Shown here: piece after piece, positions 28 through 31,288 of the stretch
Numbering within the stretch: the first letter of the stretch is position 1
Layout: each line of letters opens with the position of its first letter
From: an uncultured Anaerolineales bacterium
GTDB taxonomy: Bacteria > Chloroflexota > Anaerolineae > CG2-30-64-16
DNA: 63,159 nt
Assembly: GCA_964387985.1 (NCBI GenBank)
Contig: CAYLZG010000008.1
Span: 1-63,159, forward strand
Reading direction: 5' to 3'
Program-made: the position numbers and the translations under genes
The notes under the pieces: generated by a model
Databases searched by the model: none
The model's input: the letters and a program-made list of their open reading frames with translations, nothing else
Told to the model about the DNA's origin: nothing

Positions 28-1209
28 ATGGAAGATATCATGGCCCTGGAAGGGCAGCATGTGTTGCAGACGTATGCGCGGCCGCCGTTCGTGCTGGACC
101 ACGGCCAGGGGTGCTGGGTGTACGACGCGGACGGCAACGCGTACCTGGACTGTGTGGCGGGCATTGCCGTCAACGCGCTAGGCCATGCGCACCCGGCCCT
201 CGTCGCCGCGCTGACCGGGCAGGCGGGCAAGCTATGGCACACATCCAACCTGTACCACACTGCGCCGCACGCCCGGCTTGCTGCACGGCTGTGCGCGGGC
301 AGCTTCGCAGACCGCGTCTTCTTCTGCAACTCGGGCGCGGAGGCAAACGAGGGCGCATTCAAGTTCGCGCGCAAGTGGGCGCATGACCACTATGGGCCGG
401 AGAAGCACGTCATCGTCGCGTTCACCAATGCGTTCCACGGGCGCACCTTCGGCGCATTGGCAGCAACCCCGCGCGAGAAGTACCAGGCGCCCTTCCGCCC
501 GCTGCTGCCCGGCGTGCGCATCGCCCCCTTCAACGACCTGGCCGGCGCCGCGGCCGCGTTCGACGACAGCGTGTGTGCGGCCATCGTCGAGCCGGTGCAG
601 GGCGAGGGCGGCGTCCACCCGGCGACGCCGGAGTTCCTCGCGGGCCTGCGCGACCTGTGCGACCGGCACAACGCGCTGCTGATCTTCGACGAGGTGCAGT
701 GCGGTGTCGGGCGCAGCGGCAAGCTGTGGGCGTACCAGGGCTACGGCGTCATCCCCGACCTGCTGACCGCCGCGAAGCCGCTCGCGGGCGGCCTGCCGAT
801 GGGCGCGATCCTGATGCGCGAGGCAGTCGCCGCGGTCATGCACCCGGGCGATCACGGCAGCACGTTTGCCGGCTCGCCACTCGTCGCCTCGGTCGCAGAG
901 GCCCTGCTCGACCAGGTGGACCGGCCCGAGTTCCTGGCGGAGGTGGCGGCCAAGGGCGAGTACCTCAAGGAGCGGCTGGAGGAACTCAACTCGCCGCACA
1001 TCACTGAGGTGCGCGGCCGCGGGCTGATGGTCGGTGCAGACCTGGACATCCCGGCGGCGGATGTCGTCAACACGGGGTATCGCCACGGCCTGCTGCTCGT
1101 CAACGCCGGCCCGCAGACGCTCCGCTTCGTGCCCCCGCTGATCATCACGCGTGCGGAGATCGACACGCTCATCGAGCGGCTGACGGCGATATTGACCGAA
1201 TTGGGGTGA
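28..1209 (+). CDS. argD: acetylornithine aminotransferase (class III PLP aminotransferase)
   Basis: 393-aa ORF with a GGGGGAG run 4 nt upstream of the ATG. Class-III aminotransferase motifs are present (FFCNSGAEANEGAFKFARKW, FDEVQCGVGRSGK). It sits in a cluster with argG and argJ. Confidence 0.9.
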   Translation: MEDIMALEGQHVLQTYARPPFVLDHGQGCWVYDADGNAYLDCVAGIAVNALGHAHPALVAALTGQAGKLWHTSNLYHTAPHARLAARLCAGSFADRVFFCNSGAEANEGAFKFARKWAHDHYGPEKHVIVAFTNAFHGRTFGALAATPREKYQAPFRPLLPGVRIAPFNDLAGAAAAFDDSVCAAIVEPVQGEGGVHPATPEFLAGLRDLCDRHNALLIFDEVQCGVGRSGKLWAYQGYGVIPDLLTAAKPLAGGLPMGAILMREAVAAVMHPGDHGSTFAGSPLVASVAEALLDQVDRPEFLAEVAAKGEYLKERLEELNSPHITEVRGRGLMVGADLDIPAADVVNTGYRHGLLLVNAGPQTLRFVPPLIITRAEIDTLIERLTAILTELG

Positions 1210-1213
1210 ACCC

Positions 1214-1237
1214 GGGGCGAACACGCAGGTTCGCCCC
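1214..1237 (+). terminator. perfect 9-bp stem-loop immediately after the argD stop
   Basis: GGGGCGAAC (1214-1222), 6-nt loop, GTTCGCCCC (1229-1237). There is no clear T-tract, so it may be a processing or attenuation hairpin rather than a full terminator. Confidence 0.4.
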
Positions 1238-1259
1238 TACACAAGATGGTGGACATGGG

Positions 1260-1838
1260 ATGATGGATATACATATACGCAAGGCCACTGAGGCCGACAT
1301 CGAGTCGATCCTGGCGATCATTAACGCTTATGCGGCGCAGAACCTGATGCTGCCCCGCACGCCGGAACAGATTCGCCGCGTGCTACATAAGTTCCTGGTG
1401 GCAGAGCAGGCGTCCCCCGGCGGGAGTCAACGCGTGGTCGGCTGCGGTTCCAACGTCGAGCTCACGCCTGAACTCACGGAGCTGCGCTCGCTGGCCGTCG
1501 CGCCGGACCAGCGCGGCACCGGCCTCGGCCGGCGGCTCGTCCACGCGCTCATCGAGCAGGCGCGCGCGGACGGGTACGACACGATCTGCGCGCTGACCCT
1601 GAGCGAGGAGTTCTTCAACCGCTGCGGCTTCACGATCGTGGATCGCTGGTCCATCTCCCCCAAAATCTGGCACGAGTGCGTGTACTGCCCGAAGTTCGAT
1701 GCGTGCGACGAGATCGCCGTGGCGATGAACCTGACCGAGACGGCCCCGGCCTTGGCTCCGCTCCCACCCGAAGTCAGCCTGGAGTTGTGGCAGGCGCTCA
1801 AGTTTGGCCGGCTGCAGATGCTCCGGCAAAAAGTATGA
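1260..1838 (+). CDS. GNAT-family N-acetyltransferase, ArgA-like short amino-acid N-acetyltransferase
   Basis: The ATG at 1260 (MMDIHIRKATEADIESIL...) lies downstream of the hairpin, whereas the track start at 1206 would run through it. A GNAT acetyl-CoA loop is present (QRGTGLGRRLV), as is a C-terminal CxxCPKFxxCDE motif that I recall from COG1246-type enzymes. The arg-cluster context fits. Confidence 0.7.
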   Translation: MMDIHIRKATEADIESILAIINAYAAQNLMLPRTPEQIRRVLHKFLVAEQASPGGSQRVVGCGSNVELTPELTELRSLAVAPDQRGTGLGRRLVHALIEQARADGYDTICALTLSEEFFNRCGFTIVDRWSISPKIWHECVYCPKFDACDEIAVAMNLTETAPALAPLPPEVSLELWQALKFGRLQMLRQKV

Positions 1839-1843
1839 TTGGG

Positions 1844-1915
1844 AACCGCGAAGACGCAAAGGCCGCGAAGGTTATCTAAAGAAAACAACTTTGCGCTCTT
1901 CGCGTCTTAGCGGTT
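1844..1915 (+). promoter_or_regulatory. structured leader with mutually exclusive pairings upstream of the next gene
   Basis: 1844-1857 (AACCGCGAAGACGC) pairs with 1902-1915 (GCGTCTTAGCGGTT) at 13 of 14 positions. The second CGCGAAG copy (1864-1870) can instead pair with CTTCGCG (1898-1904), which overlaps the first stem's right arm. Confidence 0.3.
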
Positions 1916-1929
1916 CAAAAAGGGGAAGC

Positions 1930-2970
1930 ATGACACATACGGTACGTATTGCGCTCGTCGGCCTGGGCAACGTGGGCCGCGCGTTCCTCGATTTGATGGT
2001 CGAGAAGGCCGCGTTGCTGGCCGAACGGCACGACCTGGCACTCGTCCTGACGGCCGCGGCGGACTCCTCTGCCGCGCTGCTGGACGGCCGCGGAATCGAT
2101 CCGGCCGCTTTGCGCGGCCACAAGGCCGGCGGCGGCCGCCTGGCAACCTTCCCCGGCGCGCTCCCCGACCTGCCCTCGCCGGAGATGGTGCGCCGCGCGG
2201 AAGCCGACATGGTGCTCGATGCCTCGCCGGTCAACCTGCGCGATGGCCAGCCGGGGCTGAACTGCGTGCGCATCGCGCTGGAACGGGGGCTGCCGGTCGT
2301 GCTGGCGAACAAGGGGCCGCTCGTTCTCGCCTTCAACGAACTGACCCAGACGGCCGCGGACCGCGGCCTGGGCCTGGCTTACAGCGCGACCGTGTGCGGA
2401 GCGCTGCCGGTGGTCAACATCGGCCAGCGCGACCTGGTGGCGTGCGACATCCGCTCGGTCGCGGGCATCTTCAACTCGACCAGCAATTCTATCCTCGCAG
2501 CCATGGCCCGCGGGGAGAGCTACGCCGACGCGCTGCACCAGGCGCAGGTGGACGGCATCGCGGAGGCCGACCCGAGCCTCGATGTCGAAGGGTGGGACAC
2601 AGCGAACAAGCTGGTCATCATCGCCAACAGCATCCTGCACATGCCTGCAACGCTGGCCGATGTGCAACCTGTCACGGGCATCACCGGCATCACGCCGGAA
2701 CAGATACAGACCGAGCAAGCGCGTGGCCGCGTGGTCAAGCTCGTTGCGCGCGCGACGCGAGATCAGGCCAGCGGCGCATACCGCCTGGCCGTCCAGCCAG
2801 AATGGCTGCCCGCCGGTGATTTCCTCGCCGGCGTCAGCGGCTGGGAGATGGGCATCGTTTTCGATACCGATATCATGGGGCTGCAACAGCTCAAAGTGGA
2901 CGAACGCGGCCCTGTGCCGACCGCTGGCGCGATGCTGCGCGATGTGATCCGGCTTGCGACTCAATCCTAA
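1930..2970 (+). CDS. homoserine dehydrogenase family protein (no ACT domain)
   Basis: The ATG at 1930 ([19 protein letters not shown]) gives an N-terminal Rossmann GxGxxG motif. Hom-like core motifs are present ([47 protein letters not shown]). Confidence 0.7.
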
Positions 2971-2990
2971 TCTCGAGGAGTATCCCCCCA

Positions 2991-4256
<1,266 letters not shown>

Positions 4257-4260
4257 CGCA

Positions 4261-4364
4261 AGAATTATGAATTACGAATGAGGAATTAGAGATGAGTAAC
4301 GAGTAGCGAGTAGGAAGTAATCGTCGTCTGTCCCGCTTTACTCTCTACTTGTTACTCGTTACTC
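4261..4364 (+). repeat. AT-rich heptamer-periodic element folding into a 27-bp hairpin (argG-argJ spacer)
   Basis: Nine consecutive 7-nt units: agaatta, tgaatta, cgaatga, ggaatta, gagatga, gtaacga, gtagcga, gtaggaa, gtaatcg. 4294-4320 pairs with 4338-4364 (23 Watson-Crick pairs, 3 G-T, 1 mismatch) around a 17-nt loop, followed by TTTGCTCGTTTGTG. Confidence 0.6.
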
Positions 4365-4389
4365 TTTGCTCGTTTGTGAGGAGCACATC

Positions 4390-5562
4390 ATGACCGACCA
4401 GATTCCACGCGGCTTCCGGTTCGCCGGTGTGGCGGCGGGCATCAAGAAGAGCGGCGCGGCGGACCTGGCGCTGATCATCAGCGACCGGCCGTGCAATGCA
4501 GCTGCCGTGTTCACGCGCAATGCGTTCCCCGCGGCGCCTGTGCAATACGACCGCGCACTGCTGACCGAACAGCCGGCCGGCTTGCGCGGCGTGGCCATCA
4601 ACTCCGGCTGCGCGAATGCATGCACAGGCGAGGACGGGCTGGCCGATGCAGCTGCGATGGCCGCCAGTGCAGAGGCAGCGGCCGGATTGCCGCCGAGGTC
4701 GGTCGCGGTGATGTCCACCGGCGTCATCGGCCCGCGGCTGCCGATGGCAAAGATCACCGTGGGGCTGGCCGCAGCGGCCGCGCAGCTCTCGCCGGACGGC
4801 TGGGACGTCGCCTCGCTCGCTATTATGACAACTGACACGCGACCGAAGGTGGCCTTCCGCCAGGTCGACGGCATCCGGTTGTTCGGCATGGCGAAGGGCG
4901 CGGGCATGATTCACCCGAACATGGCGACCATGCTCGCAACTGTCGTCACCGACGCGGACATTGCGGCGGATACGCTGGGCAGTCTGTTGCGCAAAGCGGT
5001 CGCGGGCAGCTTCAACAGCATCAGCATCGACGGCGACACCAGCACAAACGACACTTTGCTCCTGCTGGCAAACGGTGCGGCCGGGCCGGTGAATACCGAC
5101 CGGTTTGCAGCCACGCTGACCGACCTCTGCGCCGACCTCGCGCGGCAGATCGTGCGCGACGGCGAGGGCGCGACAAAGTTCATTACCGTCACGGTGCAGG
5201 GCGCAGCGTCGGATGAAGATGCAGGGCGCGCGGCGAAGGCCGTCGCCAACTCCCCGCTGGTCAAGACCGCTTTCTACGGCGGCGATGCCAACTGGGGCCG
5301 CATCCTCGCCGCGGTGGGGTATTCCGGCGCAGAGGTCGACCCCGCGCGCGCGGACTTGTGGATCGAGGGCGAACGCGGTAAGCTGCAACTGGTGGCCGCA
5401 GGCCAGCCGCTTGCCTATTCGGAAGAGCTGGCGACCGCCATCTTCCAGGGCGCGGAAATCAGCGTGACCGTGGAGCTGGGGCTGGCTGAGGGCCGTGCGA
5501 CCGTCTGGACGTGCGACCTGAGCCACGCATACGTGGATATCAACGGGAGCTACCGGACGTAG
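4390..5562 (+). CDS. argJ: bifunctional ornithine acetyltransferase / N-acetylglutamate synthase
   Basis: The ATG at 4390 follows a GAGGAG RBS. ArgJ hallmarks are present (GFRFAGVAAGIKKSG, autoprocessing region GMIHPNMATMLA, ANWGRILAAVG). Confidence 0.9.
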   Translation: MTDQIPRGFRFAGVAAGIKKSGAADLALIISDRPCNAAAVFTRNAFPAAPVQYDRALLTEQPAGLRGVAINSGCANACTGEDGLADAAAMAASAEAAAGLPPRSVAVMSTGVIGPRLPMAKITVGLAAAAAQLSPDGWDVASLAIMTTDTRPKVAFRQVDGIRLFGMAKGAGMIHPNMATMLATVVTDADIAADTLGSLLRKAVAGSFNSISIDGDTSTNDTLLLLANGAAGPVNTDRFAATLTDLCADLARQIVRDGEGATKFITVTVQGAASDEDAGRAAKAVANSPLVKTAFYGGDANWGRILAAVGYSGAEVDPARADLWIEGERGKLQLVAAGQPLAYSEELATAIFQGAEISVTVELGLAEGRATVWTCDLSHAYVDINGSYRT

Positions 5563-5589
5563 GACCATCTGTGAGTTGAGGAGGCTACA

Positions 5590-6549
5590 ATGAACTATCG
5601 ACGATTGGGACGCACTGGACTGAAGGTGTCGGAGTTGTGCCTGGGCACGATGCAGTGGGGCTGGACCGCGAACGAGGAAGAATCGTTCACGGTCATGGAC
5701 GCCTTCGTGGAGGCGGGCGGGAATTTCCTCGATACGGCGGACGTCTACTCCCGCTGGGTCGAGGGCAACCCGGGCGGCGTGTCGGAGCAGATCATCGGCC
5801 GCTGGCTGAAGGCGCGCGGCAACCGCCAGGATGTCGTTGTGGCGACGAAGGCGCGCGGGCGGATGTGGGACGGGCCCAACGGCGAAGGCCTGAGCCGCGG
5901 CCACCTGGTGCGTGCGTGCGAGGACTCGCTGCGCCGGCTGGGAACCGATTACATCGATCTGTACCAGACCCACTCGGATGACCGCGACACGCCGCTGGAC
6001 GAGACGCTGCGGGCCCTCGATGACCTCGTGCGGGCAGGCAAGGTGCGCTACGTGGGCTGCTCGAACTATCAGGCCTGGCGGCTGTGCGGTGCGCTATGGA
6101 CAAGCGAGAAGCACCGCCTGGTGCGGTTCGACTCCATCCAGCCGCACTACAACCTGGCACACCGCGCCGAGTTCGAGCGCGAGCTGCTGCCGCTCTGCAA
6201 CGACCAGGGCTTGGGCATCATCCCCTACAGCCCGCTTGCCGGCGGATTCCTGACGGGCAAGTACCGCCGCGACAGCGTGCCGGACAGCCAGCGGGCGGAA
6301 GGAATCAAGCAACGCTACTTCAACGACCGCGGCTTCGCCATCGTGGATGCGCTCGATCGCGTGGCGCAGGCGCATGGCAGCACGCCCACTGCGGTCGCGC
6401 TGGCTTGGCTCCTCGCGCAGCCGGGCATGACCGCGCCCATCATCGGCGCGAACTCACCGGAACAGCTCCACGCCAGCCTTACCGCGACCGAGCTGAAGCT
6501 CACCTCCGAGGATCTGGCAGCGCTGAACGACGCGAGCAAGTGGGAATAA
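5590..6549 (+). CDS. aldo/keto reductase
   Basis: 319 aa. AKR motifs are present ([50 protein letters not shown]). GAGGAGG RBS upstream. Confidence 0.85.
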
Positions 6550-6618: not shown

Positions 6619-6656
6619 GGCGGGCGGAGCATCATCTTCTGCCACTACCGCCCGCC
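6619..6656. terminator. GC-rich hairpin between convergent genes
   Basis: GGCGGGCGG (6619-6627) and CCGCCCGCC (6648-6656) with a 20-nt loop. The right arm overlaps the last codons and the TAG of the extended rhodanese frame. Confidence 0.35.
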
Positions 6657-7229
6657 AACCATTGGAAGTCCAGCCGCGATCCAGCCGGCTGTCCCTCCCT
6701 TGAGTGCCGCCACATCCGCAAATCCCATCTCCTGAAGCATTTGCGCCGCACGGGCGCTAGTCGATTCGCCCCCTCAGTCGCAACTTGTCACGATCGCCTG
6801 TCCACGATCCAGGTTTTGGGCCATTGCAGTGATTTCACCTAGTTTGACAAGCTGCGAACCCGGAATGTGTTGCTTTTCATACTGATCTGCCGTGCGGATC
6901 TCCCATACGAGAGGTGGGTTTGATTCGCCTAAACGGCGTTGCAGCTCAACCGGCGAAATGCGCGGCACTTCAGCTTGTGGTGACGCGGGCTTGACGACCG
7001 CCGTTGCCATAGCCGGATCAGGTGCAGCCGGGGCAATGGCCAATCTGGTCGGCGGCGCAGCCTGGGCAACGGGCTGCGAGGTCAAGCGCGTAAAGTTTGG
7101 CGTAATAACGACAGGCTGAGCCGAGATGTTCGCAGCTCCCGACGCTCCTGGACGCAACAGCAGCCAAATGCCCAAGGCAACCACCACCAGGCCAGCCGCC
7201 AACATAAGCACACCGACGGATCTCCGCAT
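6645..7229 (-). CDS. membrane-anchored rhodanese-domain protein with an in-frame TGA in the active-site loop (candidate selenoprotein, or nonsense pseudogene)
   Basis: The ATG at 7229 follows an AGGAAGG RBS and is followed by an N-terminal TM helix (VGVLMLAAGLVVVALGIWLLL). The track ORF stops at the TGA at 6774-6776. The same frame then continues for 43 codons, GGESTSARAAQMLQEMGFADVAALKGGTAGWIAAGLPMVGGR, to a TAG at 6645-6647. That stretch is the expected C-terminal half of a rhodanese fold. Confidence 0.65.
6774..6776 (-). other. in-frame TGA codon (Sec candidate or nonsense mutation)
   Basis: The local context reads VTS-C-D-TGA-G-G-E-S, which matches the rhodanese CxxGxxS loop spacing. I verified the frame triplet by triplet across 6645-6776. 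Confidence 0.7.
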
Positions 7230-7286
7230 CGTGACCTTCCTAACAGCGAATAAGCCGGAGGGGTCCGGCAATTCGAGTCCGTCCTA

Positions 7287-8465
7287 CTAACGACCCCACA
7301 TGAGGTAGCTCCAGGACAGTCCGTGCTGCGACGTGCTGCCACGCGTCACTAATGGCAGCCAGACCCGATAAAGGGCCGGGCTTGTAGTGACCGTTGCGGT
7401 GGACGTCGCAGTCTCCTCAGGCGTCGCGCTGGGCGTGAGCGTCGCGGTCGAAGTACCAGGCTCAGGTGTCAGCGTAACGGTCGGGGTCGACGTTACGGTT
7501 GACGTCGGAGTGGACGTGTGCGTAGCGGTCAGCGTGGAGGTCACAGTCGGTGTGTGCGTGGCGGTCGGCGTGGAGGTCACAGACGGCGTATTCGTCACGG
7601 TTGGAGTTTGGGTACGAGTCGGCGTACGCGTGGCCGTGCCCGTCTGGATCGGCGTGCGGGTTATCGTCGGTGTGCGCGTTACCGTCGATGTGGGGGTCAC
7701 CGTTGGCGTTCGGGTCACGGTCGAAGTAGGCGTCGGAGTCCACGTCTGGACCGGTGTCTCGGTGATGGTGCTGGTGGCGGTCGGCGTGAATGTCGACCCT
7801 GCATGCGGCGTGTAGGTCAGATACCCCGTCTTCAGCGTCATCGTGTACTTGATCGCCTGGGGCGAACTGACAAAACTACCGGGACTGGCACGAAAAGTGA
7901 TCGTCGTATCGGCAGTAGGCGTCCCGCCTGCCGGACAGTTCGGCACTGCCTTGGTTTGCACCGTGAACGACGCCAGAAGGCCTTGTGAGGCTGTAACATA
8001 AGGAGGCTGAATTAAGAGCAGGCCCGCCTGGATGTGAAGCACGTTGCCGGAAAGCGAGACCTTGGGGTTTGGATTGAATGCCGGAATCGAGGTCGGAGGC
8101 GCCGGCCAAAGACCGCCAGCCAGACTCATCAGCACCGGCGCTGTCGCGAATTTGCAGGCATCGAGCTGCAGGTCGATCTGCCAGGCTGCCTTTTCGCCGC
8201 TGCCGGCGTCACGCATGCGCACCTCGAAAGTGACGGCACTGTTACCGGGCGCGGGGATGGGGTTGCCGGCAGTCGCTTCTGCACCGCCCGGATGCGCGAT
8301 GAAGAACGTGGCAGGGTCGGCCGCGGGCACCAGAACGGCGCGCGTTTGTGCTCGACTCCCGGCCATCGGCTCCCCAGACGCGGCCTGGCCCACGGCGGGC
8401 AATGCCCAAGTTGCCAATAAGCCGATCAAAATCACAACAAGCAACCATGTGCTATGGCGTCTCAT
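7287..8465 (-). CDS. secreted divergent cohesin-like protein with long Thr/Pro linker and WLPLV tail
   Basis: The ATG at 8465 follows an AAGGAG RBS, with a signal peptide [28 protein letters not shown]. An N-terminal beta-sandwich resembles the neighbouring cohesin modules ([13 protein letters not shown]). About 150 aa of TPT repeats follow. The protein ends ...[12 protein letters not shown] plus 18 aa. Confidence 0.7.
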
Positions 8466-8890
8466 AGACGACTCCTTCGCATTGTATACAGTGGTATGGC
8501 CCACAGCCGTGACCGCCAGGCCTGCACCCGGATCAGGCAACTCGTTCCAACGAGCATCGACAGGGCAACAAGCGAGCTCAGCGGCCAACTCATCTCTGAG
8601 TCCATCACTTGAACGCGCACAAGCATGATCACACTCAAGGTACTACGGCAGGAATCGGAACTCAGAGGTGTCAATCAACAGGATGACCCAACGGCCTGTT
8701 TTACCAACGGTACTGGCATCAAGCACACAAGCTGAGAGAAAATCAGCTAGCCGGTGTCCAGCAGGAGAGGGTTGCTTTGGACAGCCTCGGCGCACAAAAG
8801 CCCCAAGACGCGAGACCGCCTCACGAGAGTCGATCTCTTGCTCAGAAAACAATTAAGCGTGAACACTCCCTTTTAGCAAGTACAGAAATG

Positions 8891-8919
8891 AGTATACTCC
8901 AACTCATGGGGCAACGCAA
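8891..8919 (-). promoter_or_regulatory. possible sigma-70-type promoter TTGCGT-N17-TATACT
   Basis: On the - strand the -35 is the reverse complement of 8914-8919 and the -10 is the reverse complement of 8891-8896, with exactly 17 nt between them. This would give a ~420-nt leader before the 8465 start. Confidence 0.3.
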
Positions 8920-8978
8920 AACTTTGAACTCCAGAGGAACGCAGATGGCGTTGCCAGCGAACGTCCTAAGGCGACGCT

Positions 8979-9609
8979 TCAACGACGCATGACCAAAGGC
9001 AGAAGAACCTTCCGGCCGCCGTTTGAAATGATCGTGAAGCGGCCGTCCAGGGCGGTCACATCATACTTGGTGCCGTCCGGCGTGCTGAGGATCGCGAGGG
9101 CGAAGGCGGCGGAGGACTGGTCGGGCGGCGGGGCATCCGGATTGGGGCACGCCACCTGTGTCTTGGCCGTTAGCGTCATCGTGGCGAGCCAGGCCACCTG
9201 AGGCTGTCGTGGAGCCAGCAAGGGCCACCTGCCCCAGATCAATGCGGATGGTGTTCCCGTTCTGCTGGATTTCGGGACCAATAGGGATCAGGGAACCCGG
9301 CACCATGTAATCGCCGAAGAGAATATCTTCGACTGTGGGAGTCTCGAATGTGCATGCATCCAGCAACAACCGGACTTGCCAACCCGCCTTTGGAGACGTG
9401 CCTGCATCGCGGACACCCACCTCGAACGCCACGGCTTGACCGCCGAGGACAGTGATCGGCACAACTGAGGCATCCTGGTGGCTCTCCACATGGGCCACAA
9501 AGAAAGTGGCCAACAGGCTTTGTGCCTGGCTCCGGATGCCGGGTGCCGGAGCCAGAAACCAACTAACCAGGAACAGGATCCCCATTATCTTCGCGCACTT
9601 TTTTCCCAT
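8979..9609 (-). pseudogene. small cohesin-like secreted protein, frameshifted near 9199
   Basis: Two track ORFs (9061..9624 and 8979..9281) in different frames together make one paralogue of the 7287-8465 N-terminal domain. The span is 631 nt (3n+1). The junction is gcc tca g|gtg gcc tgg; removing one G gives ...STTASVAWLATMTLTAKT..., which matches the xxLATIxFxA cohesin strand seen in neighbouring genes. The product ends KVLLPLVMRR. Confidence 0.6.
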
Positions 9610-9626
9610 GATCGCAGCTCCCAAAG

Positions 9627-9657
9627 AAAAGGGCCGGCGCGCTATGCCGGCCCTTTT
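9627..9657 (-). terminator. rho-independent terminator after the scaffoldin-like gene
   Basis: A 12-bp stem AAAAGGGCCGGC / GCCGGCCCTTTT with a 7-nt loop. On the - strand the hairpin is followed by TTTTCTTTGGG. It lies 59 nt past the TAG at 9716-9718. Confidence 0.65.
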
Positions 9658-9715
9658 ATGCTACCACAGCAACGGTTGCAGGCCAACTAGTCAGTCAGCC
9701 TGCAATCATGAACCT

Positions 9716-12700
9716 CTACCTGCTAATGAGCGGCAGGTAGATCCTGTAGATTATAGGAGCAGATGTGCTTGTCGGCGTCGCAGTCGGTTCCGGCGTGTTC
9801 GTCGGCGTGGCCGTTGGTTCCGGCGTGTTCGTCGACGTGGCCGTCGGTTCCGGCGTGTTCGTCGGCGTGGCCGTCGGCTCCGGCGTGTTCGTCGGTGTAG
9901 CCGTCGGTTCCGACGTGTTCGTCGGCGTCGCAGTCGGCGCCAGGACCTCTCCGAAGTTCACCGCCTTGTGTTGGCCGCCCACGATCGTGACAGAGACCGT
10001 GTCGGGTGATGTGCTGATGTAGCCTGCCGGCTGGGTCGCCTGGACTACCTTGTAGGCACCCGGAACGACACCGGAGAACTCGAACCAGCCCGTAGCGCCC
10101 ACCGAGTTAACTGTCTGCAGCAGCGCGTTGGTCGCAGCATTCCGGAGTTGGATCGCGACACCTGGAATACCAGCCGTCTCGCCCGCATCACGGATGCCGT
10201 TCCCATTGGTGTCGATGAAGACCCAGCCAAAGAGCCGCGGCGCTGTGTAGCCAAAGTCCACAGTGAGCTGGCTTTCACCGCGAGCCAGACTGACCGTCTC
10301 CGGGCTGTTACCTGTCGTCAGGAAGTGATTGGCAGGCACGGTGGTCGCATCCACTTTGACCTGATACTGGCCGGCCCGCAATCCATCAAACAGATACTTC
10401 CCGTCCGCGCCCGTCGTGGCCGACTTGTTGACGGCAGCACCGAACTCATCCGTGCCGGTCAGATCGACCTCGACGCCAGCCAGGCCAGGCTCACCCGCAT
10501 CCTGTGTACCGTTCGCATTGGTGTCATACCAAACCTGGTCCCCGATGCTGCTGAGCGCGTAGGGTTTGACACACAATGCGCCACCATAGACCAGTGGGAC
10601 CTGTTCCTGGCCGCGTGTATCCGTCGCCCGAACGTTCAGCAGGCTCAGCGGTGAACCACAGCCCACCTTCAGAGCTGTGAAGTCGATATGCGCGAGAACA
10701 CCATTGCCGCTGGGTCCCGGATTGGGGCCGAAGGAAATCTGGCCATACTCCAGGTTGCCCGCGGCATTATCGATGGTTGGCCCGATCTCGTTGATGGGCC
10801 TGACGGCGCTGATGAAGCCGCCATCGCGCACATCATCCACCTGGGCGATGCTCGCATTCCAGTTCAGCTCGAACTGGAAGCCGCCGAGATCATAGGCACA
10901 CTCGGCAACGACATCCACGGTGAACTGAGGATCAATTACGAAGATCTCCGCGCTCGCCGGCACCAGCTTGATGATGAATGGCTTGACCGCGATGCTGTTA
11001 CTCACTACCGTGTTGGGTTGCACGAACCCGTCGATGTCCGTCAAGATGACGTTGGACAACGTGAGGGAGGACGTGCCGGCCAGCGTCTTGCCGCGGAACT
11101 GGATCACCGCGAGCTTACCATCACCGCTCGGTCCATCCATGGCACCACTGCTGGCCGCACCCACCGAGATCGTCCCCGCCGCGTTGTCGATGATCGGGGC
11201 CGCTGGAATGAGGGTCCGTCCGGTGCTGCCAAGGAAGCCGCCATCGGTAACTCCCACGACTTCCATCAGAGCCGGGTTGAACGCCAGCTTGAACTGGTAG
11301 GCGCCAAGGTTGGATGCATCATCAACCCGAACCTCGACGTTGAACGCGTTGCGGACGCAGGCGGCCTGTGTCACCAAATGCACGTTGGCCGTAGGCAGCG
11401 GCTTGATGATCGCCTTGCCGTCCGTCACCGTCGCGTTCTGCTCGAAGCCCTTCGTCGAAGTCAGGATGACCCTGCTCAAGTCCAGCGGGCTGGTGCCCAC
11501 TCCGATTCCGCGGAAACGAATGGTGGCCAACTTGTGAGGGCCGCCGTTCGCACCCGCCTGGGCGCCACTGGAAATCTGACCATAGCTGATCAGGCCTGCG
11601 CTGACCGTCGGGCCCACCGGGGTTACCGTGCGGCCAGTGGCCGAAATCAGCGTGCCACCGGTCAACGACACATACTCCAACACGTCCTTGTCGTATGCGA
11701 GGTTGAACTGGAAGGCGCCGAGGTCCGCTGCAGCGCTCACCATAACATTCACATCAACGAAGTCGCCGATTTCCTTCGTCTGCGTGATCGGCTGGATGTA
11801 GACCTTGGCGACGGGCAACGCACTGACTGTGACTTGGCCCGAACTTGCGGTCGAGGGCTGCGCGTAACCAAGTGTCGTGGTTGCGATCTGATTGGAGAGT
11901 GTCAGAGGGGACGTACCAGTAGCCATCGCCTGGAAGTGCAGTGTCACCAGATCACCCGCGCCCTCAGGACCAGCGGCAGCCCCGGTGCTATACTCACCAT
12001 ACGCCACAACACCCGCCGACAGGCTAGTCGTCGGGAACACAGTACGGCCAGTGCTGTGCAGGAAGCCAGCAAGCGGATCGCTGGTCCCTATGAACTGGAG
12101 TTTTGCGGGATCATACGCCAGCTTGAACTCGAATGCGCCCAAGTCCACGGCGCCGTCAATGTGGATCTTGATGTAGACATCGTCACCAATGGTGACCGTC
12201 TGGTCCGCGGGCACAACGCTGAACTGTGCACTTGACAACTGCGCGACACGGACGACGCCGTCCACAGGCACACTGCCTTGCACGACACCGGCCGCAGTCG
12301 TCAAGATCACATTCGACAGATCGAGCGGGCTGGAACCAGATGCGATCGCTGTGAACTCGATGGTGGCGAGGACCTGCGGGCCACCGGTAGGACCAGTCGC
12401 AGCAGCTGAAAACTGGCCGTAGCTGATGGCACCTGGGGTGATCGTCGGGCCGAGTGCGGTAACTGTTCCCAGATAATTACCGCCTGTCAAGCCTTCATAG
12501 GAAAGCACGGTCGGGTTGAATGCCAGGTTAAACTGGAACGAACCCGAGTTCAACACATAGTCAGCCACCACATCCACCGTGAACGTATCCCCCAAGGTCA
12601 CATCCTTGGAGGCCGGAACGATGCGCACGTTGGTGATGGTTGATTCCACCTTTACGCTGCCGTTGGTGGTCGTGAACGGGAGGCCACCGAGGTTAGTCTT

Positions 12701-13177
12701 CGGTGCTGCTGCGAAGGTGAGCGATGAGGTGCCAGCAGCGACGGCTTCGAACGTGATGGTCGCCAAGACACCCGACCCATCCACGCCGCCACCCAGGCTG
12801 ATTCCACCAAAGGCCACGTTGCCCGGGCTCAGCACCGGGCCCACGCTGATTGCAGGCTGAGCCAGGAAGGCAGTAGCCCCGCTGACGCTCAGAGCGTGGA
12901 TCAGTGAGTTGTTGTAGACCAACTCTACCTGATACCCTTCCAATCCGATCACGTCTTCCACGCGAACGTCAACGGTGAAGGTTTCGCCCACGCGCGGGTT
13001 GGTGGCCGGACCAACCAGGCGCAACTCGGCAACGCTGCCTTGCGTGTTCGGCTGGGCGACCGGCGCGGCAATCGCCAAGCCACTGGAGCCAAGCAACAGC
13101 ACCAGCAGGATAACCAAGGCCCGGCCCAGTGATCCGCCATACCGGCGAAACGGCCGAGTAGGATTGGGTAGTTTCAT
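9716..13177 (-). CDS. scaffoldin-like protein: six tandem cohesin modules, two Cna-B/SdrD-type domains, [10 protein letters not shown] repeats and a YLPLISR tail
   Basis: The ATG at 13177 follows an AGGAGAAG RBS; the track's upstream extension overlaps the preceding gene. There is a signal/TM segment ([18 protein letters not shown]). Six ~135-aa repeats (roughly 10560-13030) each carry L(G/E)(A/G)(F/Y)(Q/E)F.LA(Y/F)(D/N)P and ..LATI.F.A blocks. Two SdrD-B-like units follow ([28 protein letters not shown]... and [17 protein letters not shown]...). The C-terminus is ...[12 protein letters not shown]. Confidence 0.85.
9769..9942 (-). repeat. 30-bp coding tandem repeat (5 full copies plus partial flanks)
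   Basis: The units at 9781-9810, 9811-9840, 9841-9870, 9871-9900 and 9901-9930 differ by 1-4 nt. They encode [10 protein letters not shown] decapeptides in the scaffoldin linker. Confidence 0.85.
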
Positions 13178-13232
13178 GAGAACTTCTCCTTGCGAATGGT
13201 CAACAGGCCGGATGCCCGCTGCGCTGAAGATA

Positions 13233-14336
13233 CTACTTGCCGGCGCCCCGCGTGCTCTTCCGTCCGCTGTGCCGCCAGAGAAAGATGCCGCCGGCGCCCA
13301 AAAGCGCGCCAAAGCCGATGAGAACAGGTCCGACGATGCTGCCAGTACCGCCTGAAGACGGCGGAGGCGGGGTCGCACCGGGCACGGTCGTGTCTTTCGG
13401 CGCAAAGATGGCCGTTTCGCCGGGTCGCGGGGTCAAGCTCGGCAGTGCGCGCGGCGTAACCGTCCCCAGAGCGATCGCGGTGCGCAAAGCATGGGCCGTG
13501 GCGGTCGCCACTTTAACGATCTGCGTTTCGATCGGTTCAGGGGTGTCCGTTGGTGTCTCCGGGGTCGGAGAGGCCAATGGAGTATCGGTGGCGCCCGTTA
13601 CCGCCACGGTTGAAGTCGATACGGCAGACGTCACAGACGTAGAGCTGTCGAAGGTAGCCGGCACTGTAACGTTCGGTGCCGCGGTTGCAGCCGGTGTTGG
13701 CCCAGCCACCTCGGTGGCCGGCGCCTCCATCGTGATCGTTGCCGGCGCGAGTGTTGCCGTTGGTAGAACAACATCGCCCGTGAAAACAACTTGTGCGCCT
13801 TGCACGGAGGCCGAAATCCCCGTTCCTTGCGTGTCGGCCAGCCGCACATCGGACAACACCAGGCTACCTTCGCCGGCCCGGAGGGCTGTGATGCTGAGGG
13901 TGACCAACACACCGTCACCGCTCGCGCCAGACGTCGTCCCGAGTGTCACCGCACCTGCGCTTACTCTGCCTGTCACCCGATCGTCCTTGATACCGACCGG
14001 AATTACCGTGCGGTTCGTACTGCCGATGAATGGGCCAAGCTTCGCTTCATCAATCTGAACCAAGGCTGGATCGTATGCGAAGACCAACTCAAAGGCGCCC
14101 AGGTCGTTGACACCTTCGACTGCTACGTTAACTTCAAAACGCTCGCCGGCCGCACGCGCGATCTCCGCAGGAGTCACCAGGATGGTGGCTTGCTCCTGCA
14201 GGGTTGGAGCCGCGCCGGTAACGACGGTCGAGCCGACCAAGCCAAAGAGAATCAGAGCCACCGTGATCGCACCCAGGCGAAGCCCACCGTGACTGGAAAA
14301 GATCCCTCCGGCTTGTACGCTTCCAACAAGCGGCAT
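13233..14336 (-). CDS. single-cohesin protein with Thr/Pro linker and C-terminal TM anchor (candidate anchoring scaffoldin)
   Basis: Signal/TM segment LGAITVALILFGLVGSTVV. One cohesin module (VNDLGAFELVFAYDPALVQI..., GVLVTLSITALRAG). T/P/A-rich linker. Tripartite C-terminus: PPSSGGTGS, then a hydrophobic helix IVGPVLIGFGALLGAGGIFLW, then a basic tail RHSGRKSTRGAGK. Confidence 0.8.
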   Translation of the reverse strand: MPLVGSVQAGGIFSSHGGLRLGAITVALILFGLVGSTVVTGAAPTLQEQATILVTPAEIARAAGERFEVNVAVEGVNDLGAFELVFAYDPALVQIDEAKLGPFIGSTNRTVIPVGIKDDRVTGRVSAGAVTLGTTSGASGDGVLVTLSITALRAGEGSLVLSDVRLADTQGTGISASVQGAQVVFTGDVVLPTATLAPATITMEAPATEVAGPTPAATAAPNVTVPATFDSSTSVTSAVSTSTVAVTGATDTPLASPTPETPTDTPEPIETQIVKVATATAHALRTAIALGTVTPRALPSLTPRPGETAIFAPKDTTVPGATPPPPSSGGTGSIVGPVLIGFGALLGAGGIFLWRHSGRKSTRGAGK

Positions 14337-14358
14337 AAATCCCTCATGTCCACAGACA

Positions 14359-14398
14359 CACTTCTACCCCAGCCCCAGTGAGGGCTGGGGTAGAAGTG
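14359..14398 (-). terminator. perfect 17-bp stem-loop
   Basis: CACTTCTACCCCAGCCC (14359-14375), loop CAGTGA, GGGCTGGGGTAGAAGTG (14382-14398). It lies between the dockerin gene stop and the 14336 start. Confidence 0.5.
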
Positions 14399-14430
14399 GG
14401 TTCGGTAGTGTAGCTTATTCAGGTGGAAGC

Positions 14431-14461
14431 GAGGTCACTGCGCACCTGGCGCAGTGACCTC
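14431..14461 (-). terminator. perfect 13-bp stem-loop 13 nt after the dockerin gene stop
   Basis: GAGGTCACTGCGC (14431-14443), loop ACCTG, GCGCAGTGACCTC (14449-14461). No T-tract follows. Confidence 0.5.
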
Positions 14462-14473
14462 ACTATCAGAGGT

Positions 14474-17400
14474 TCAGAAATGGCACGTGTCGCCGATATG
14501 GTTGATGACCTTCATGAAGTCGATCACGGTGATCACACCATCACCGTCCACATCGTATGCGGCCACCCAGTTCGGGCTGGCTGCCGTCTCTTGCCAGTGC
14601 GGCACCATCATCAAGACATCATTGACGGTGACCTCGGTGTCCTGGTCCCAATCGTAGTTCAGGTCGCAATTCGGGACGCAGGGATCAGTGCCCTTCAGCA
14701 TTTCCTGGATGTTGGTGTAGCCATCGGCATCCGGATCAGCAGTAGCATCGGCCACGGTCGCCTGGAGGCAATCGTACTTGACTTCATAGCCGTCAGGCAT
14801 GAGGTCGGCGTCGGTGTCCCTCTTCAGTGGATCGGTGCCGTAAACATCGATCTCATCACCGTCCTTCAGACCATCACCGTCGCTGTCAGCCTTCATTGGG
14901 TCAGTGCCCTTGGCGACTTCCTCGCCGTCCATCAGGCCGTCATCGTCGCTGTCAGGGTCCGTCGCGTAGGTGCGGTAGATGAAGAGCTCCTCGCCGTCCT
15001 TGAGCCCGTCATTGTCAGTGTCTGCCTTGGTGGGATCGGTCCCATAGTACTGGACCTCATCGCCATCACCGACCCGATCGCCATCGGTGTCGGCGTCGCA
15101 CGGATCGGTGCCAATCTTGACTTCATCCCCGTCCAGCAGGTAGTCGCCATCCGAGTCAGGGTTGCTGATGAGGGGGCAGGCACCCATTTCCTGGGCATCC
15201 GGCAGGCCGTCGTGGTCGAGATCGGATATGTCATCCAGGCCATTCTGCGGGTTATGGGGGTAGCCCATCTCGGACAACTGCCATTCGACGAAGTCGGTCA
15301 CGCCACCGTCATCGGTGTCCGGCATCGTGCAGCTCGTGGTATAGCCGTCCTCACCCAGTCTGCCTTCTTCCCCGTCGTCCAGGCCATCATTATCGGTGTC
15401 GGCCTTGGTCGGATCGCATGACTGCCAGCTGCCCGGGCCACCGGGGTACGGAGCAGGGACACGCCCATTAACTTCTACGCCATCGCTCCAGCCGTCATCG
15501 TCGGTGTCCCTGTCGCACGGATCGGTCTTGAGGCCGAATTCCTGCACATTTGTCAGAGTGTCACCATCCGCGTCCAAGGCTGCGTCGCCCGGAATGAGGG
15601 GGCTCAGCGAAGCGCATTGGCCATAGGTAACTTCCCACCCATCCGGCATACCGTCCTCGTCGGTGTCGGCAACGCACGGTTTGGTGCCAAGGGCCTTCTC
15701 TTCGACATTGGTCAGGCCATCCACGTCAGGATCGGCCGCTGCGTCGTCCACCAGCGCGTCCAGGCACGAGTTGGCGAGCTCGTAGCCGTCGAGCATGGTG
15801 TCGTCATCGGTGTCGATGTCACAGGGATCGGTGCCGGCATTCATCTCATCGATGTTCAGAGCGCCGTCGCCATCCGTGTCAGAGGCGTTGTTCGCCGTCA
15901 GCGGGCTCAGACAGGCATTGTGGATCTCGTAACCATCCAGCATACCGTCGTCGTCGCTGTCGGGATCACACGGCTCACTCTTGTTGATCTCCTCGATGTT
16001 GGTCGCGCCGTCATCGTCAGGGTCCGCATCCGCATCGTCTACCACCGGGTTGAGGCAGGGTCGGATCGTCTCATAGAGGTCCGGCAGCGCATCACCGTCG
16101 GTGTCACCATTGCACGGGTCGGTCTCATCACCGGAGTACGCCTCGCCGTCCCGGCCCAGGTATTCCGCCAGGTTGGTCAGGCCATCCGTATCCAAGTCCC
16201 CGCCAGCATCGTTGACAAGCACGTCGAGGGCGCAGCCAGCAGCTGCCTTATCGACCTCATACTTGTCGTCCATGCCATCCCCGTCGGTGTCATAGTAGCA
16301 TGGCTCGCTGACGTTGTATTCCTGAATATTGGTCAGGCCGTCGCCGTCAGGATCCGCAGCCGCGTCGTTCACCAGCGCGTCCAGGCAGTCGCGCATGAGC
16401 TCGTACCCATCGAGCATGCCATCTTCGTCGGTGTCGGCGACACACGGATCGGTGCCGGCCTTCATCTCCACGATATTGGTCGCGCCGTCGCTGTCCGGGT
16501 CACGGTTCCGGTCAGCAACCTTCGGATTGAGACAAGCATTGGCTAACTCGTAGCCGTCGTTCATGGTATCGTCATCGGTGTCGGCGTCGCAGGGATTGGT
16601 ATTATCCCCGGTGGGCGGGAACGTGAAATGATCCGCCGTCCCATCCGAATACTTCAGCGGCTCCAAGCCATCCTTGCCCAGGTATTCCGCGCCACTGAGA
16701 GCGCCATCGGCATCCGGATCTTTGTCGGCATCCGCCACGAGCGCGTTCAGGCACGCATTGCCGTCAGCATCTGTGGCGTAGAACGCCTCGAAGCCGTCAT
16801 TCATGCCATCGCCATCGGTGTCGATGTCGCAGGGATCGGAGCCAACCGTGAACTCATTCAAGCTGCCGAAGCCATCCAGGTCAGGGTCAAGGCCCTTATC
16901 GTCGACCACCGGGTTCAGACACGCATGGGCAGCCTCATAGGCATCGGGCATGCCGTCCGCGTCGGTGTCCTTGACGCAGGGGTTGGTCTTGAGAGCCATC
17001 TCCTGGATATTGGTCAGACCGTCTTCATCTGCGTCGTCATCGGCATCCGCCACGGTGGCATCCAAACATGCATTGGCCCACTCGTAGTCGTCGGTCATGC
17101 CGTCGCCATCAGAGTCGTTGCTGCACGGATTGGTGCCCATGAGGTATTCGTTCAGGCTGCCCTGGCCATCCCCATCCGGGTCTTCGCCTCTGTCGTCGAA
17201 GTACAGAGGATCCAGACACTCATGGGAGACCTCGAAACCGTCAGGCATGCCATCCGCGTCAGTGTCGGCAGCGCATGGGTCAGTGCCGGCCGCCATTTCC
17301 GCGATGTTGCTCAGGTCATCATCGTCGGGATCAGCGTTGGCATCAGCCGTGATCGGCTTCAGGCAGGGGTTCGCCACCTCATAGTCATCGGGCATGCCGT

Positions 17401-17968
17401 CGCCGTCGCTGTCCTTCGACAGGGGGTTGGTGAGATGGGTGTTTACTTCCGCCCCGTCCGACAATGTGTCACCATCGGTGTCAGCCTTCAGCGGATCGGT
17501 ATGGTACACGATCAGCTCGGACGAGTCCTTCAGTCCATCACCGTCGGTATCAGACTTCGTGGGGTCGGTGCCAGCCTGGAACTCGGCCAGGTTAGACAGG
17601 TTGTCACCGTCTTTGTCGCCGCCCGCATCCGTCGGATCCAGCGGGTCCAGCCCAAAGTTCTTTTCCCAACCGTCAGGCATCCCGTCGCCGTCCGTGTCCC
17701 ACTTGAGGGGATTGGTTTCACCGGCGTCCTGGATGGCGTTGGCATTAACATCTTCTTCATAGCCATCGCGCAAGCCATCTGCGTCCGTGTCGGGGTTGTT
17801 AGGGTTAGTGCCCCAGATCGTTTCAGCAGCATCGCAAAGGCCGTCGAAATCGGCATCGGGCGCAAGGGCCGGACACACAGGATCGGCCGCAAAGGCCGCA
17901 CCGGCTGTAAATGCCATGACCATCGCGACAATGGCCAACAGCGCAAGCCATTTCATCTTGGCGTGCAT
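14474..17968 (-). CDS. secreted Ca-binding thrombospondin-type-3-repeat protein with C-terminal dockerin
   Basis: The ATG at 17968 lies after a GGAGGAGAG RBS, with signal peptide MHAKMKWLALLAIVAMVMAFTAGAAFA. About 1050 aa consist of D.D.DG..D..E (TSP3) units organised in ~37-40-aa Cys-containing modules (..PC..DTD.DGM.DGYE....CL.P.V.DA..DPD.DGL(T/S)N..E...GT.PC). A C-terminal dockerin follows. Confidence 0.85.
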   Translation of the reverse strand: MHAKMKWLALLAIVAMVMAFTAGAAFAADPVCPALAPDADFDGLCDAAETIWGTNPNNPDTDADGLRDGYEEDVNANAIQDAGETNPLKWDTDGDGMPDGWEKNFGLDPLDPTDAGGDKDGDNLSNLAEFQAGTDPTKSDTDGDGLKDSSELIVYHTDPLKADTDGDTLSDGAEVNTHLTNPLSKDSDGDGMPDDYEVANPCLKPITADANADPDDDDLSNIAEMAAGTDPCAADTDADGMPDGFEVSHECLDPLYFDDRGEDPDGDGQGSLNEYLMGTNPCSNDSDGDGMTDDYEWANACLDATVADADDDADEDGLTNIQEMALKTNPCVKDTDADGMPDAYEAAHACLNPVVDDKGLDPDLDGFGSLNEFTVGSDPCDIDTDGDGMNDGFEAFYATDADGNACLNALVADADKDPDADGALSGAEYLGKDGLEPLKYSDGTADHFTFPPTGDNTNPCDADTDDDTMNDGYELANACLNPKVADRNRDPDSDGATNIVEMKAGTDPCVADTDEDGMLDGYELMRDCLDALVNDAAADPDGDGLTNIQEYNVSEPCYYDTDGDGMDDKYEVDKAAAGCALDVLVNDAGGDLDTDGLTNLAEYLGRDGEAYSGDETDPCNGDTDGDALPDLYETIRPCLNPVVDDADADPDDDGATNIEEINKSEPCDPDSDDDGMLDGYEIHNACLSPLTANNASDTDGDGALNIDEMNAGTDPCDIDTDDDTMLDGYELANSCLDALVDDAAADPDVDGLTNVEEKALGTKPCVADTDEDGMPDGWEVTYGQCASLSPLIPGDAALDADGDTLTNVQEFGLKTDPCDRDTDDDGWSDGVEVNGRVPAPYPGGPGSWQSCDPTKADTDNDGLDDGEEGRLGEDGYTTSCTMPDTDDGGVTDFVEWQLSEMGYPHNPQNGLDDISDLDHDGLPDAQEMGACPLISNPDSDGDYLLDGDEVKIGTDPCDADTDGDRVGDGDEVQYYGTDPTKADTDNDGLKDGEELFIYRTYATDPDSDDDGLMDGEEVAKGTDPMKADSDGDGLKDGDEIDVYGTDPLKRDTDADLMPDGYEVKYDCLQATVADATADPDADGYTNIQEMLKGTDPCVPNCDLNYDWDQDTEVTVNDVLMMVPHWQETAASPNWVAAYDVDGDGVITVIDFMKVINHIGDTCHF
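14477..14671 (-). other. dockerin module (two EF-hand-like segments)
   Basis: The sequence is DWDQDTEVTVNDVLMMVPHW ... DVDGDGVITVIDFMKVINHIG, i.e. duplicated D.D.D(G)..(T/V)..D loop-helix units typical of dockerins. It is the only such module in the window. Confidence 0.75.
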
Positions 17969-18399
17969 AGGACTCTCCTCCAAGGGTGCAGAAAAATGAG
18001 TGGTGGTAGAAAACCGATGCCGGTTACCATGAGATAGCCGGTAGAACGCAAAACGAAGTGAGACAAAGGTTACCCGATAATCACCTCCTTTGCAGCGTCA
18101 GTCTTGGTAGACCGGTGGGATATGCCCCAGATGAAACTGGCGAGCCGCGGGAAATCGCCGATGGGAAGCCAGAGAACATGGACTCTGGCAGGGTGGCCGA
18201 ACGTAATCACACACACTTCATCCTGTCAATCGGAATGGCGGTGACGCGGCCACCGTACAACGGTGCATAATGCACTTCCTACTCGCTTAGTCGCCAAGGG
18301 TAAGGCAATCCTTCGCAAATTTGTGCAGATTTGAGCAAGAATATCCGTTGAGATCACATGGCATCCGGTGGGAGCCCCAGGGAGCAACGCGCGTCGCCT

Positions 18400-31246: not shown

Positions 31247-31288
31247 CATACGAATGGCCGGCACTCAGATCACTGTGTCTCGATTTGG

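Follow-up and report, generated by a model that had tools for sequence, protein, structure and literature searches.

An in-frame TGA splits a rhodanese gene on a contig from an uncultured Anaerolineales bacterium (CAYLZG010000008.1; the whole stretch analysed, 63,159 nucleotides, is called the window below). This TGA, at positions 6774-6776 on the minus strand, most likely encodes selenocysteine (Sec), and from sequence comparison we put the probability of this reading at roughly 0.85. It is favoured because the TGA, a hairpin behind it and an intact downstream frame recur in 14 distinct sequences. Taken together, the data strongly support a predicted CxU rhodanese selenoprotein, divergent and currently mis-annotated, of a kind that has already been predicted computationally. 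For this gene, the initial annotation of the window had left two options, a selenoprotein of the Cys-x-Sec type or a gene that had only just been inactivated. The former gains support from the 14 TGA-bearing sequences, from Cys at the same position in 117 of 123 wider homologues, from the hairpin and from purifying selection, while the latter, like an assembly error, is refuted by the recurrence of the TGA and by the purifying selection downstream of it.

The gene was called in a minus-strand frame of the 63-kb window; homologous DNA sequences carry labels of the form L### and proteins of the form P####. An ATG at 7227-7229 opens the reading frame, which runs through ...GQAIVTSCD to the TGA. 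Past the TGA, the same frame gives GGESTSARAAQMLQEMGFADVAALKGGTAGWIAAGLPMVGGR, up to a TAG at 6645-6647. The open frame on both sides of the TGA had been recognized before, yet the 43 sense codons counted at that time are in fact 42 (126 nt, 6648-6773), which make up the C-terminal third of the rhodanese fold as judged by conservation and substitution rates. The recoded coding sequence (6645-7229, minus strand) thus has 194 codons including the UGA. Its predicted read-through product has 194 residues and about 20.1 kDa, as compared with 151 residues for the fragment ending at the UGA. A Shine-Dalgarno-like AGGAAGG, read from the sequence, lies 5 nt upstream of the ATG (7235-7241, minus strand), and the N-termini of the homologues (MRR.../MRK...) favour this start over an upstream TTG at 7271.

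The UGA divides a single rhodanese domain (residues about 89-190; 6660-6965, minus strand), as delimited by Pfam PF00581, by alignment with structures in the PDB and by the NCBIfam model NF041203. PF00581 matches residues 93-185 and NF041203 residues 75-190. Against PF00581, whose gathering threshold is 22.2 bits, the read-through product scores 57 bits over profile positions 2-101 of 102 and carries the catalytic Cys in its active-site loop, and so belongs to this family. The truncated product scores 26 bits and reaches only positions 2-69. Full coverage of the profile is therefore obtained on read-through alone, in line with the earlier suggestion that the codons behind the TGA are the missing C-terminal part of the fold. 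In alignments with rhodaneses of known structure (1yt8, 6mxv with YCGSGFRS, and YgaP), the Cys two codons ahead of the TGA is the canonical catalytic Cys. This Cys150 (TGC, 6780-6782, minus strand), aligned to CGSGFRS of 6mxv, is invariant across all homologues. The TGA consequently occupies loop position +2, as had been proposed, and the proposed Sec codon is residue 152 in the motif C-D-U, within an active-site loop that reads C150-D-U152-G-G-E-S (U for UGA). Elsewhere in the window TGA is an ordinary stop, as initially stated. It terminates 16 of the 37 crudely called genes, among them argD (28-1209) and argG (2991-4256), whose Pfam matches extend to their C-termini.

A first protein search returned nine homologues with 43-60% identity, eight of which end exactly at ...C-D. 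In homologue DNA and further loci drawn from genome and metagenome collections (ENA, JGI, NCBI and Logan assemblies), TGA stands at the same codon in 14 distinct homologous sequences including the window, and TAA or TAG in none. These Sec forms fall into three subfamilies (domain identity 51-65%): C-D-U-G-x-E-S (subfamily A; the window, L001, L005, L007, L008, L009, L011, L013 and L015), C-A-U-P-D-E-A (subfamily B; L017, L018, L029 and L030) and C-T-U-G-N-E-A (L037). The source genomes that bear a name are metagenome-assembled genomes of uncultured Anaerolineales or Anaerolineae. In each sequence, 42-44 conserved sense codons after the TGA (74 in L007) complete the rhodanese fold, and the true stops are mainly TAG or TAA, with TGA used once, in L007.

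Downstream of the TGA, the ratio of non-synonymous to synonymous substitution rates (dN/dS; pairwise Nei-Gojobori) is 0.05-0.35 and indistinguishable from that upstream, with dS mostly saturated among the Sec forms. Because the ratios are low and equal on both sides, the segment after the TGA is translated and under purifying selection; the relaxed constraint expected of a nonsense pseudogene was not observed. The pattern is that by which bacterial selenoprotein genes are commonly recognized (PMC13188914), with an in-frame UGA conserved in orthologues and coding sequence conserved on both sides of it. Public gene calls for the Sec forms nevertheless all stop at the UGA. They give products of 137-171 residues which are unnamed or labelled 'hypothetical protein' (P0003-P0009, and P0010, a 171-residue 'hypothetical protein' from NCBI GCA_964566325.1, CAZMIS010000045.1). 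For the truncated protein of the window itself, a search by exact sequence gave no entry.

Beyond the Sec forms, an exhaustive HMMER search and a profile search yielded 123 wider homologues that could be aligned. At the position of the UGA, 117 of them have C-x-C (typically YCAC..E), four C-x-W, one C-x-R and one C-x-S. Cys homologues thus align to the UGA, another characteristic of selenoprotein genes, and the alternation of C-x-C and UGA corresponds, at the level of the alignment, to classical Sec/Cys pairing. The orthologue comparison recommended by the initial annotation therefore gave both a TGA kept in 14 distinct sequences and a prevailing Cys. The wider relatives are full-length, single-domain proteins, most with a signal, a linker and a rhodanese domain, and the full-length Cys forms are colinear with the Sec forms. 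Those bearing an organism name are from Acidobacteriota (Blastocatellia and Thermoanaerobaculia).

The hairpin GCGCC-CGUGC-GGCGC (6743-6757, minus strand) has a stem of 5 bp and a loop of 5 nt with GU, and is separated from the UGA by 16 nt, its first stem base being the 17th nucleotide past the UGA. It was already noticed in the initial annotation, and synonymous freezing, folding energy, the consensus structure and the published criteria now speak for it. Codons +6 to +10 (S-A-R-A-A), written AGC GCC CGT GCG GCG, showed no synonymous difference in 319 comparisons in which the residue was the same. Over the gene's 74 five-codon windows the median is 0.51, the hairpin window being the unique minimum. 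Nearby, codon choice for these amino acids is unconstrained, as at Ala +22, where GCG, GCC, GCT and GCA all occur. The only substitution within the hairpin among the UGA-bearing sequences is a GCG to GTG change in L013, which is non-synonymous and leaves a G-U pair. RNAalifold recovers the hairpin as the consensus structure. The exact motif is confined to this family of rhodaneses, where it always stands 16 nt past TGA or CGA.

The published model of the bacterial selenocysteine insertion sequence (bSECIS) asks for a stem of 4-16 bp, a loop of 3-9 nt, a distance of 16-37 nt from the UGA to the apical loop, a G within the first two loop positions, and an energy of -7.5 kcal/mol or lower (PMC13188914). 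The observed stem of 5 bp, the loop of 5 nt with G at position 2 followed by U, the distance of 21 nt and the energies of -9.4 and -7.9 kcal/mol all lie within these bounds, as the initial annotation had supposed for distance, stem length and loop G.

A Cys-form control supports the link between the hairpin and the UGA. In L038, the same S-A-R-A peptide is encoded as AGC GCC CGC GCG GTG, with the loop GU lost synonymously and the 3' arm altered. Therefore, the site that is frozen beside the UGA is free to change once the UGA is gone, at least in this one sequence. In two contigs of separate JGI samples, CGA (Arg) stands in place of TGA (L006, identical to L027, at about 2546-2580; L026 at about 513-547). 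In this Arg form the 5' arm of the hairpin is changed from GCC to GTC (C to U), and several non-conservative substitutions occur (Gln to Pro, Lys to Thr). The lineage is real and closely related to L005 (dS about 0.2), and its sequence looks like a recent replacement of Sec by Arg.

A motif-guided scan asked for an in-frame TGA near a Cys, flanked by coding sequence and accompanied by a SECIS-compliant hairpin. Its sole match in the 63-kb window was the rhodanese TGA, and each related locus gave one match. The rhodanese TGA together with its hairpin exceeds chance expectation. The same scan missed a positive control, the PrdB-like gene described below, and its silence elsewhere is thus weak evidence. 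A second scan, based on third-position GC (GC3) and aimed at genes split by one TGA, was noisy, missed the rhodanese gene and was discarded. One near-match to the hairpin, at 3740 in L029 with a TGA 19 nt upstream, was rejected, as that TGA (3721-3723) is off-frame from the 181-residue open reading frame (3278-3823) and the arms pair poorly.

Sec decoding in Anaerolineae is indicated by a neighbouring gene and by the literature. In all subfamily-B loci, a PrdB-like gene of 251 codons (TIGR04483) lies 350-500 bp downstream of the rhodanese gene on the same strand (L029:3833-4588, plus strand; L017:3201-3956; L018:6114-6869, which is the same as L031:3700-4455). Its TIGR04483 score of 122 bits is under the cut-off of 300. 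At codon 163 a TGA is conserved in frame (FLTPC-U-PLC), in the known UxxC site of the PrdB family, and a textbook SECIS hairpin, CAGUCC-GU[G/U/A]-GGACUG, starts 12 nt past the UGA and varies only in the third loop base. This gene probably encodes another unannotated selenoprotein, and it may be functionally linked to the rhodanese. In addition, formate dehydrogenases that contain Sec are published for single-cell genomes of Anaerolineae (PMC5736913). Based on these two observations, Sec decoding occurs in Anaerolineae, although neither of them proves it for the organism of the window.

Several observations weigh against the Sec reading. Neither the 63-kb window nor the fetched loci yielded selA, selB, selD or tRNA-Sec, and ARAGORN detected no tRNA whatever, be it in the window or in 22 loci. 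The window also lacks the PrdB-like neighbour. None of the Sec forms reaches the NF041203 cut-off, their scores being 49-64 of 115 bits. The closest sense-codon relatives carry Arg (CGA, on two contigs) and apparently Trp at the UGA position, not Cys. As for the hairpin, the RNAalifold alignment of the UGA-bearing sequences has an invariant stem without compensatory covariation, and single-sequence folds of 45-91 nt past the UGA are no stabler than shuffles (z -0.02 to +0.9). Moreover, when the window's own sequence is folded for minimum energy, a competing GGGCG/CGCCC pairing prevails, which was noted initially as an alternative; it is, however, unconserved across the homologues. Because single-sequence folds are no better than shuffles, we gave preference to the comparative evidence over thermodynamic significance. 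Searches against Rfam gave nothing relevant, either for the whole window at gathering thresholds or for 6640-6800 at permissive E-values, the only match being one by chance (E = 4.4).

The best surviving alternative, which we consider unlikely, is a programmed read-through of the UGA in which a near-cognate tRNA supplies a standard amino acid, either Trp, Arg or Cys, and the hairpin acts as a stimulator and not as a SelB-binding SECIS. That no Sec machinery was seen in the window or the fetched loci would fit this explanation, and so would the relatives one mutation from TGA, which encode Arg (L006/L027 and L026) or apparently Trp (P0161, P0188, P0198 and P0209). The four Trp proteins, however, all derive from JGI contigs of 939-1958 bp, and their Trp may reflect either a TGG replacement or a TGA that the metagenome gene caller read with genetic code 4. 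The predominance of Cys among the wider members is what a Sec/Cys pair predicts, and the hairpin fits the bSECIS geometry down to the loop GU. Furthermore, the PrdB-like neighbour in subfamily B belongs to a recognized family of selenoproteins, and its UGA stands at the site known for that family. We know of no bacterial precedent for conserved, stimulated read-through inside an active-site loop. If this explanation were true, the hairpin would be part of a conserved, SelB-independent stop-codon recoding signal within the active-site loop of a bacterial enzyme.

That the UGA is a genuine stop, with a functional 151-residue fragment and the 42 codons kept as a separate peptide or a regulatory RNA, is quite improbable. 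Gene callers in four public sources do give the truncated product, and a role of the hairpin in regulation or attenuation is conceivable. Such a fragment, however, would break off in the middle of the active-site loop, with a third of the profile lacking, and the conservation downstream is protein-like, dN/dS being low in the frame of the gene. Downstream there is neither a start codon nor a ribosome-binding site that is conserved, the Met at +12 being Ile, Thr, Arg or Lys in the other sequences. Ordinary stops should also interchange, yet the codon is TGA in 14 of 14 sequences, and the full-length Cys forms are colinear across it. Lastly, a recent nonsense mutation at 6774-6776, or an error of sequencing or assembly there, which the window by itself might suggest with its one in-frame TGA and no Sec machinery seen in 63 kb, has a negligible probability given the same TGA in independent ENA, JGI, NCBI and Logan assemblies, saturated synonymous divergence between the sequences and purifying selection that persists downstream.

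If the UGA is indeed decoded as Sec, we infer that SelB carrying Sec-tRNA(Sec) would bind the hairpin in the mRNA 16 nt past the UGA, and that Sec would be inserted in place of termination, giving the 194-residue protein instead of the 151-residue fragment. In the active site, Cys150 would be the canonical nucleophile that carries the persulfide. Sec152 would serve as its resolving partner, attacking either the Cys-bound sulfane sulfur or Cys150 itself, in the latter case with formation of a selenenylsulfide. A plain sulfurtransferase loop would thereby become a redox-active C-x-U pair. The loop C-x-[U/C]-x-x-[E/D] is acidic (D and E in the window protein), not cationic as in thiosulfate sulfurtransferases. 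For this reason, we favour a redox role, in persulfide resolution or selenenylsulfide formation, over classical thiosulfate:cyanide sulfurtransferase activity, and propose it as a working model drawn from the loop sequence.

The N-terminal half of the product suggests where such chemistry might take place. Residues 1-26 (7152-7229, minus strand), MRR followed by a hydrophobic segment of about 21 residues with a Kyte-Doolittle maximum of 2.75, resemble an export signal or membrane anchor by this heuristic. They are followed by an Ala/Pro-rich low-complexity linker, recognized by its composition (residues 27-88; 6966-7151, minus strand; 16 Ala and 11 Pro in 62 residues). Across the homologues the linker is poorly conserved and variable in length, with 40-70 residues rich in Ala, Pro and Thr in the family. 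In a heuristic check, the N-terminus is basic and followed by a strongly hydrophobic segment throughout the family, and a lipobox Cys closes this segment in four Sec forms (L011, L013, L015 and L037, with LAAC, LVAC or LLGC) and in 32 of 120 wider homologues. The product is thus presumably an exported rhodanese, membrane-tethered or of the lipoprotein type. In a Chloroflexota cell, its domain would face the outer side of the cytoplasmic membrane.

The gene is flanked on one side by an arginine-biosynthesis cluster and an aldo-keto reductase. On the other side, upstream and on the same strand (7287-17983, minus strand), lie a Thr/Pro-rich protein of 433 residues and large surface proteins, which have five cohesin domains with SdrD_B, and TSP3 repeats with dockerin. 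This surface-protein arrangement is partly syntenic with L001:1-9900 and L005:4300-6400. A conserved operon partner was considered as an explanation and rejected for subfamily A; the neighbours differ (RecO, glutamine synthetase, aldo-keto reductase) apart from the upstream cohesin/dockerin/SdrD proteins. The six genes of the arginine and aldo-keto reductase block (28-6549) have a GC3 of 0.80-0.90, and almost all other called genes 0.59-0.75. The step falls right beside the rhodanese gene; differing expression levels, horizontal acquisition or a chimeric join in the assembly might account for it.

Farther along the window, an extracytoplasmic function (ECF) sigma factor (Sigma70_r2/r4_2) is encoded next to a FecR-domain protein with a C-terminal Ig-like/glucodextranase-B domain (20465-22533, minus strand). 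They look like a typical sigma/anti-sigma pair, seemingly unrelated to the rhodanese UGA. Two adjacent genes on the plus strand (22850-36739; 2798 and 1816 residues) encode a megasynthase resembling polyunsaturated fatty acid or polyketide synthases, with NMO/enoyl-reductase, KS, AT, ACP, KR, DH and phosphopantetheinyl-transferase domains. They share a frame, and a TGA with 14 sense codons lies between them; we take this as coincidence. Hydrolases and ABC-2/HlyD transport genes are also present.

The putative Sec rhodanese does not overturn current understanding. Its motif class goes back to a prediction of 2005 and is listed by recent reviews, and its existence will be unsurprising to specialists. 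What it adds are members from Chloroflexota (Anaerolineae) and an exported, membrane-tethered architecture among the CxU rhodanese selenoproteins. It also suggests that the NF041203 cut-off is too strict, making an Anaerolineae selenoprotein clade invisible to standard pipelines. Natural Sec, Cys and Arg variants at one active-site position offer material to study the role of Sec at +2 in rhodanese chemistry. A hairpin that is identical in sequence and spacing over about 50% protein divergence provides, in turn, a substrate for work on SelB recognition in a poorly studied phylum.

Compared with known rhodaneses, the window protein shares with Escherichia coli PspE, GlpE and YgaP the fold and the position of the catalytic Cys. 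PspE is periplasmic, and YgaP is a membrane-anchored protein of the inner membrane. The similarity to these three is at the superfamily level (24-33 bits), and at +2 their loops have neither a second Cys nor a Sec. Other predicted rhodanese selenoproteins are forms 1, 2 and 4, with the motifs UxxS and UxxG, and TsoB, a rhodanese/DsbD fusion with UxxxxU (PMC13188914). Like the window protein, they have a rhodanese fold whose active-site loop contains or adjoins a Sec, and sequence is the sole basis of their prediction. The motifs listed for forms 1, 2 and 4 begin with Sec, and in these forms Sec therefore seems to replace the catalytic Cys, whereas the window protein retains this Cys and has Sec as an extra residue at +2. 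TsoB matches the window family weakly, with 17-19 bits against a cut-off of 805. Exported C-x-C rhodaneses, for example P0095, P0134, P0162 and P0257, share the architecture of the window protein. They have a lipoprotein or signal sequence, a linker and one rhodanese domain, the loop C-x-[C/U]-x-x-[E/D] and 36-42% domain identity, but carry Cys in place of Sec and no UGA, and the hairpin is degraded in the one locus examined.

The nearest known kind is the 'form 3' rhodanese selenoprotein with the CxU motif, first predicted by Zhang and Gladyshev in 2005 with bSECISearch, according to later catalogues (PMC13188914, PMC9312934), and represented by NF041203 (rhodanese_LYCAU, rhodanese-related (seleno)protein; curated cut-off 115 bits). 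The initial annotation could not say whether its loop position matched that of known rhodanese selenoproteins; it corresponds to the form 3 motif, at a score under the cut-off. Among the NCBIfam models, NF041203 matches best in each of the three Sec subfamilies as well as in the Cys forms. With X at the UGA the window protein reaches 57.2 bits, and with C 64.1 bits, a gain of 7 bits, over profile positions 7-123 of 126; subfamily B scores 58.5 bits and L001 49.0 bits. Cys-form relatives score 70-112 bits, and P0257 (YCAC; 112.3 bits) aligns column for column. By these scores, the whole C-x-C/U clade grades into NF041203, with the Anaerolineae Sec forms as its most divergent branch. Both groups are single rhodanese domains in which the Sec or Cys lies two residues past the catalytic Cys (C-D-U, C-A-U and C-T-U in the Anaerolineae), an equivalence derived from profile alignments. 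Subfamily B even reads L-C-A-U, and CxC and CxU versions coexist in both groups. The Anaerolineae forms differ in having their own loops, C-D-U-G-x-E-S, C-A-U-P-D-E-A and C-T-U-G-N-E-A. By the NCBI threshold, these predicted selenoproteins are outside NF041203; by motif, position and fold, as read from the alignments, they are the same kind of protein.

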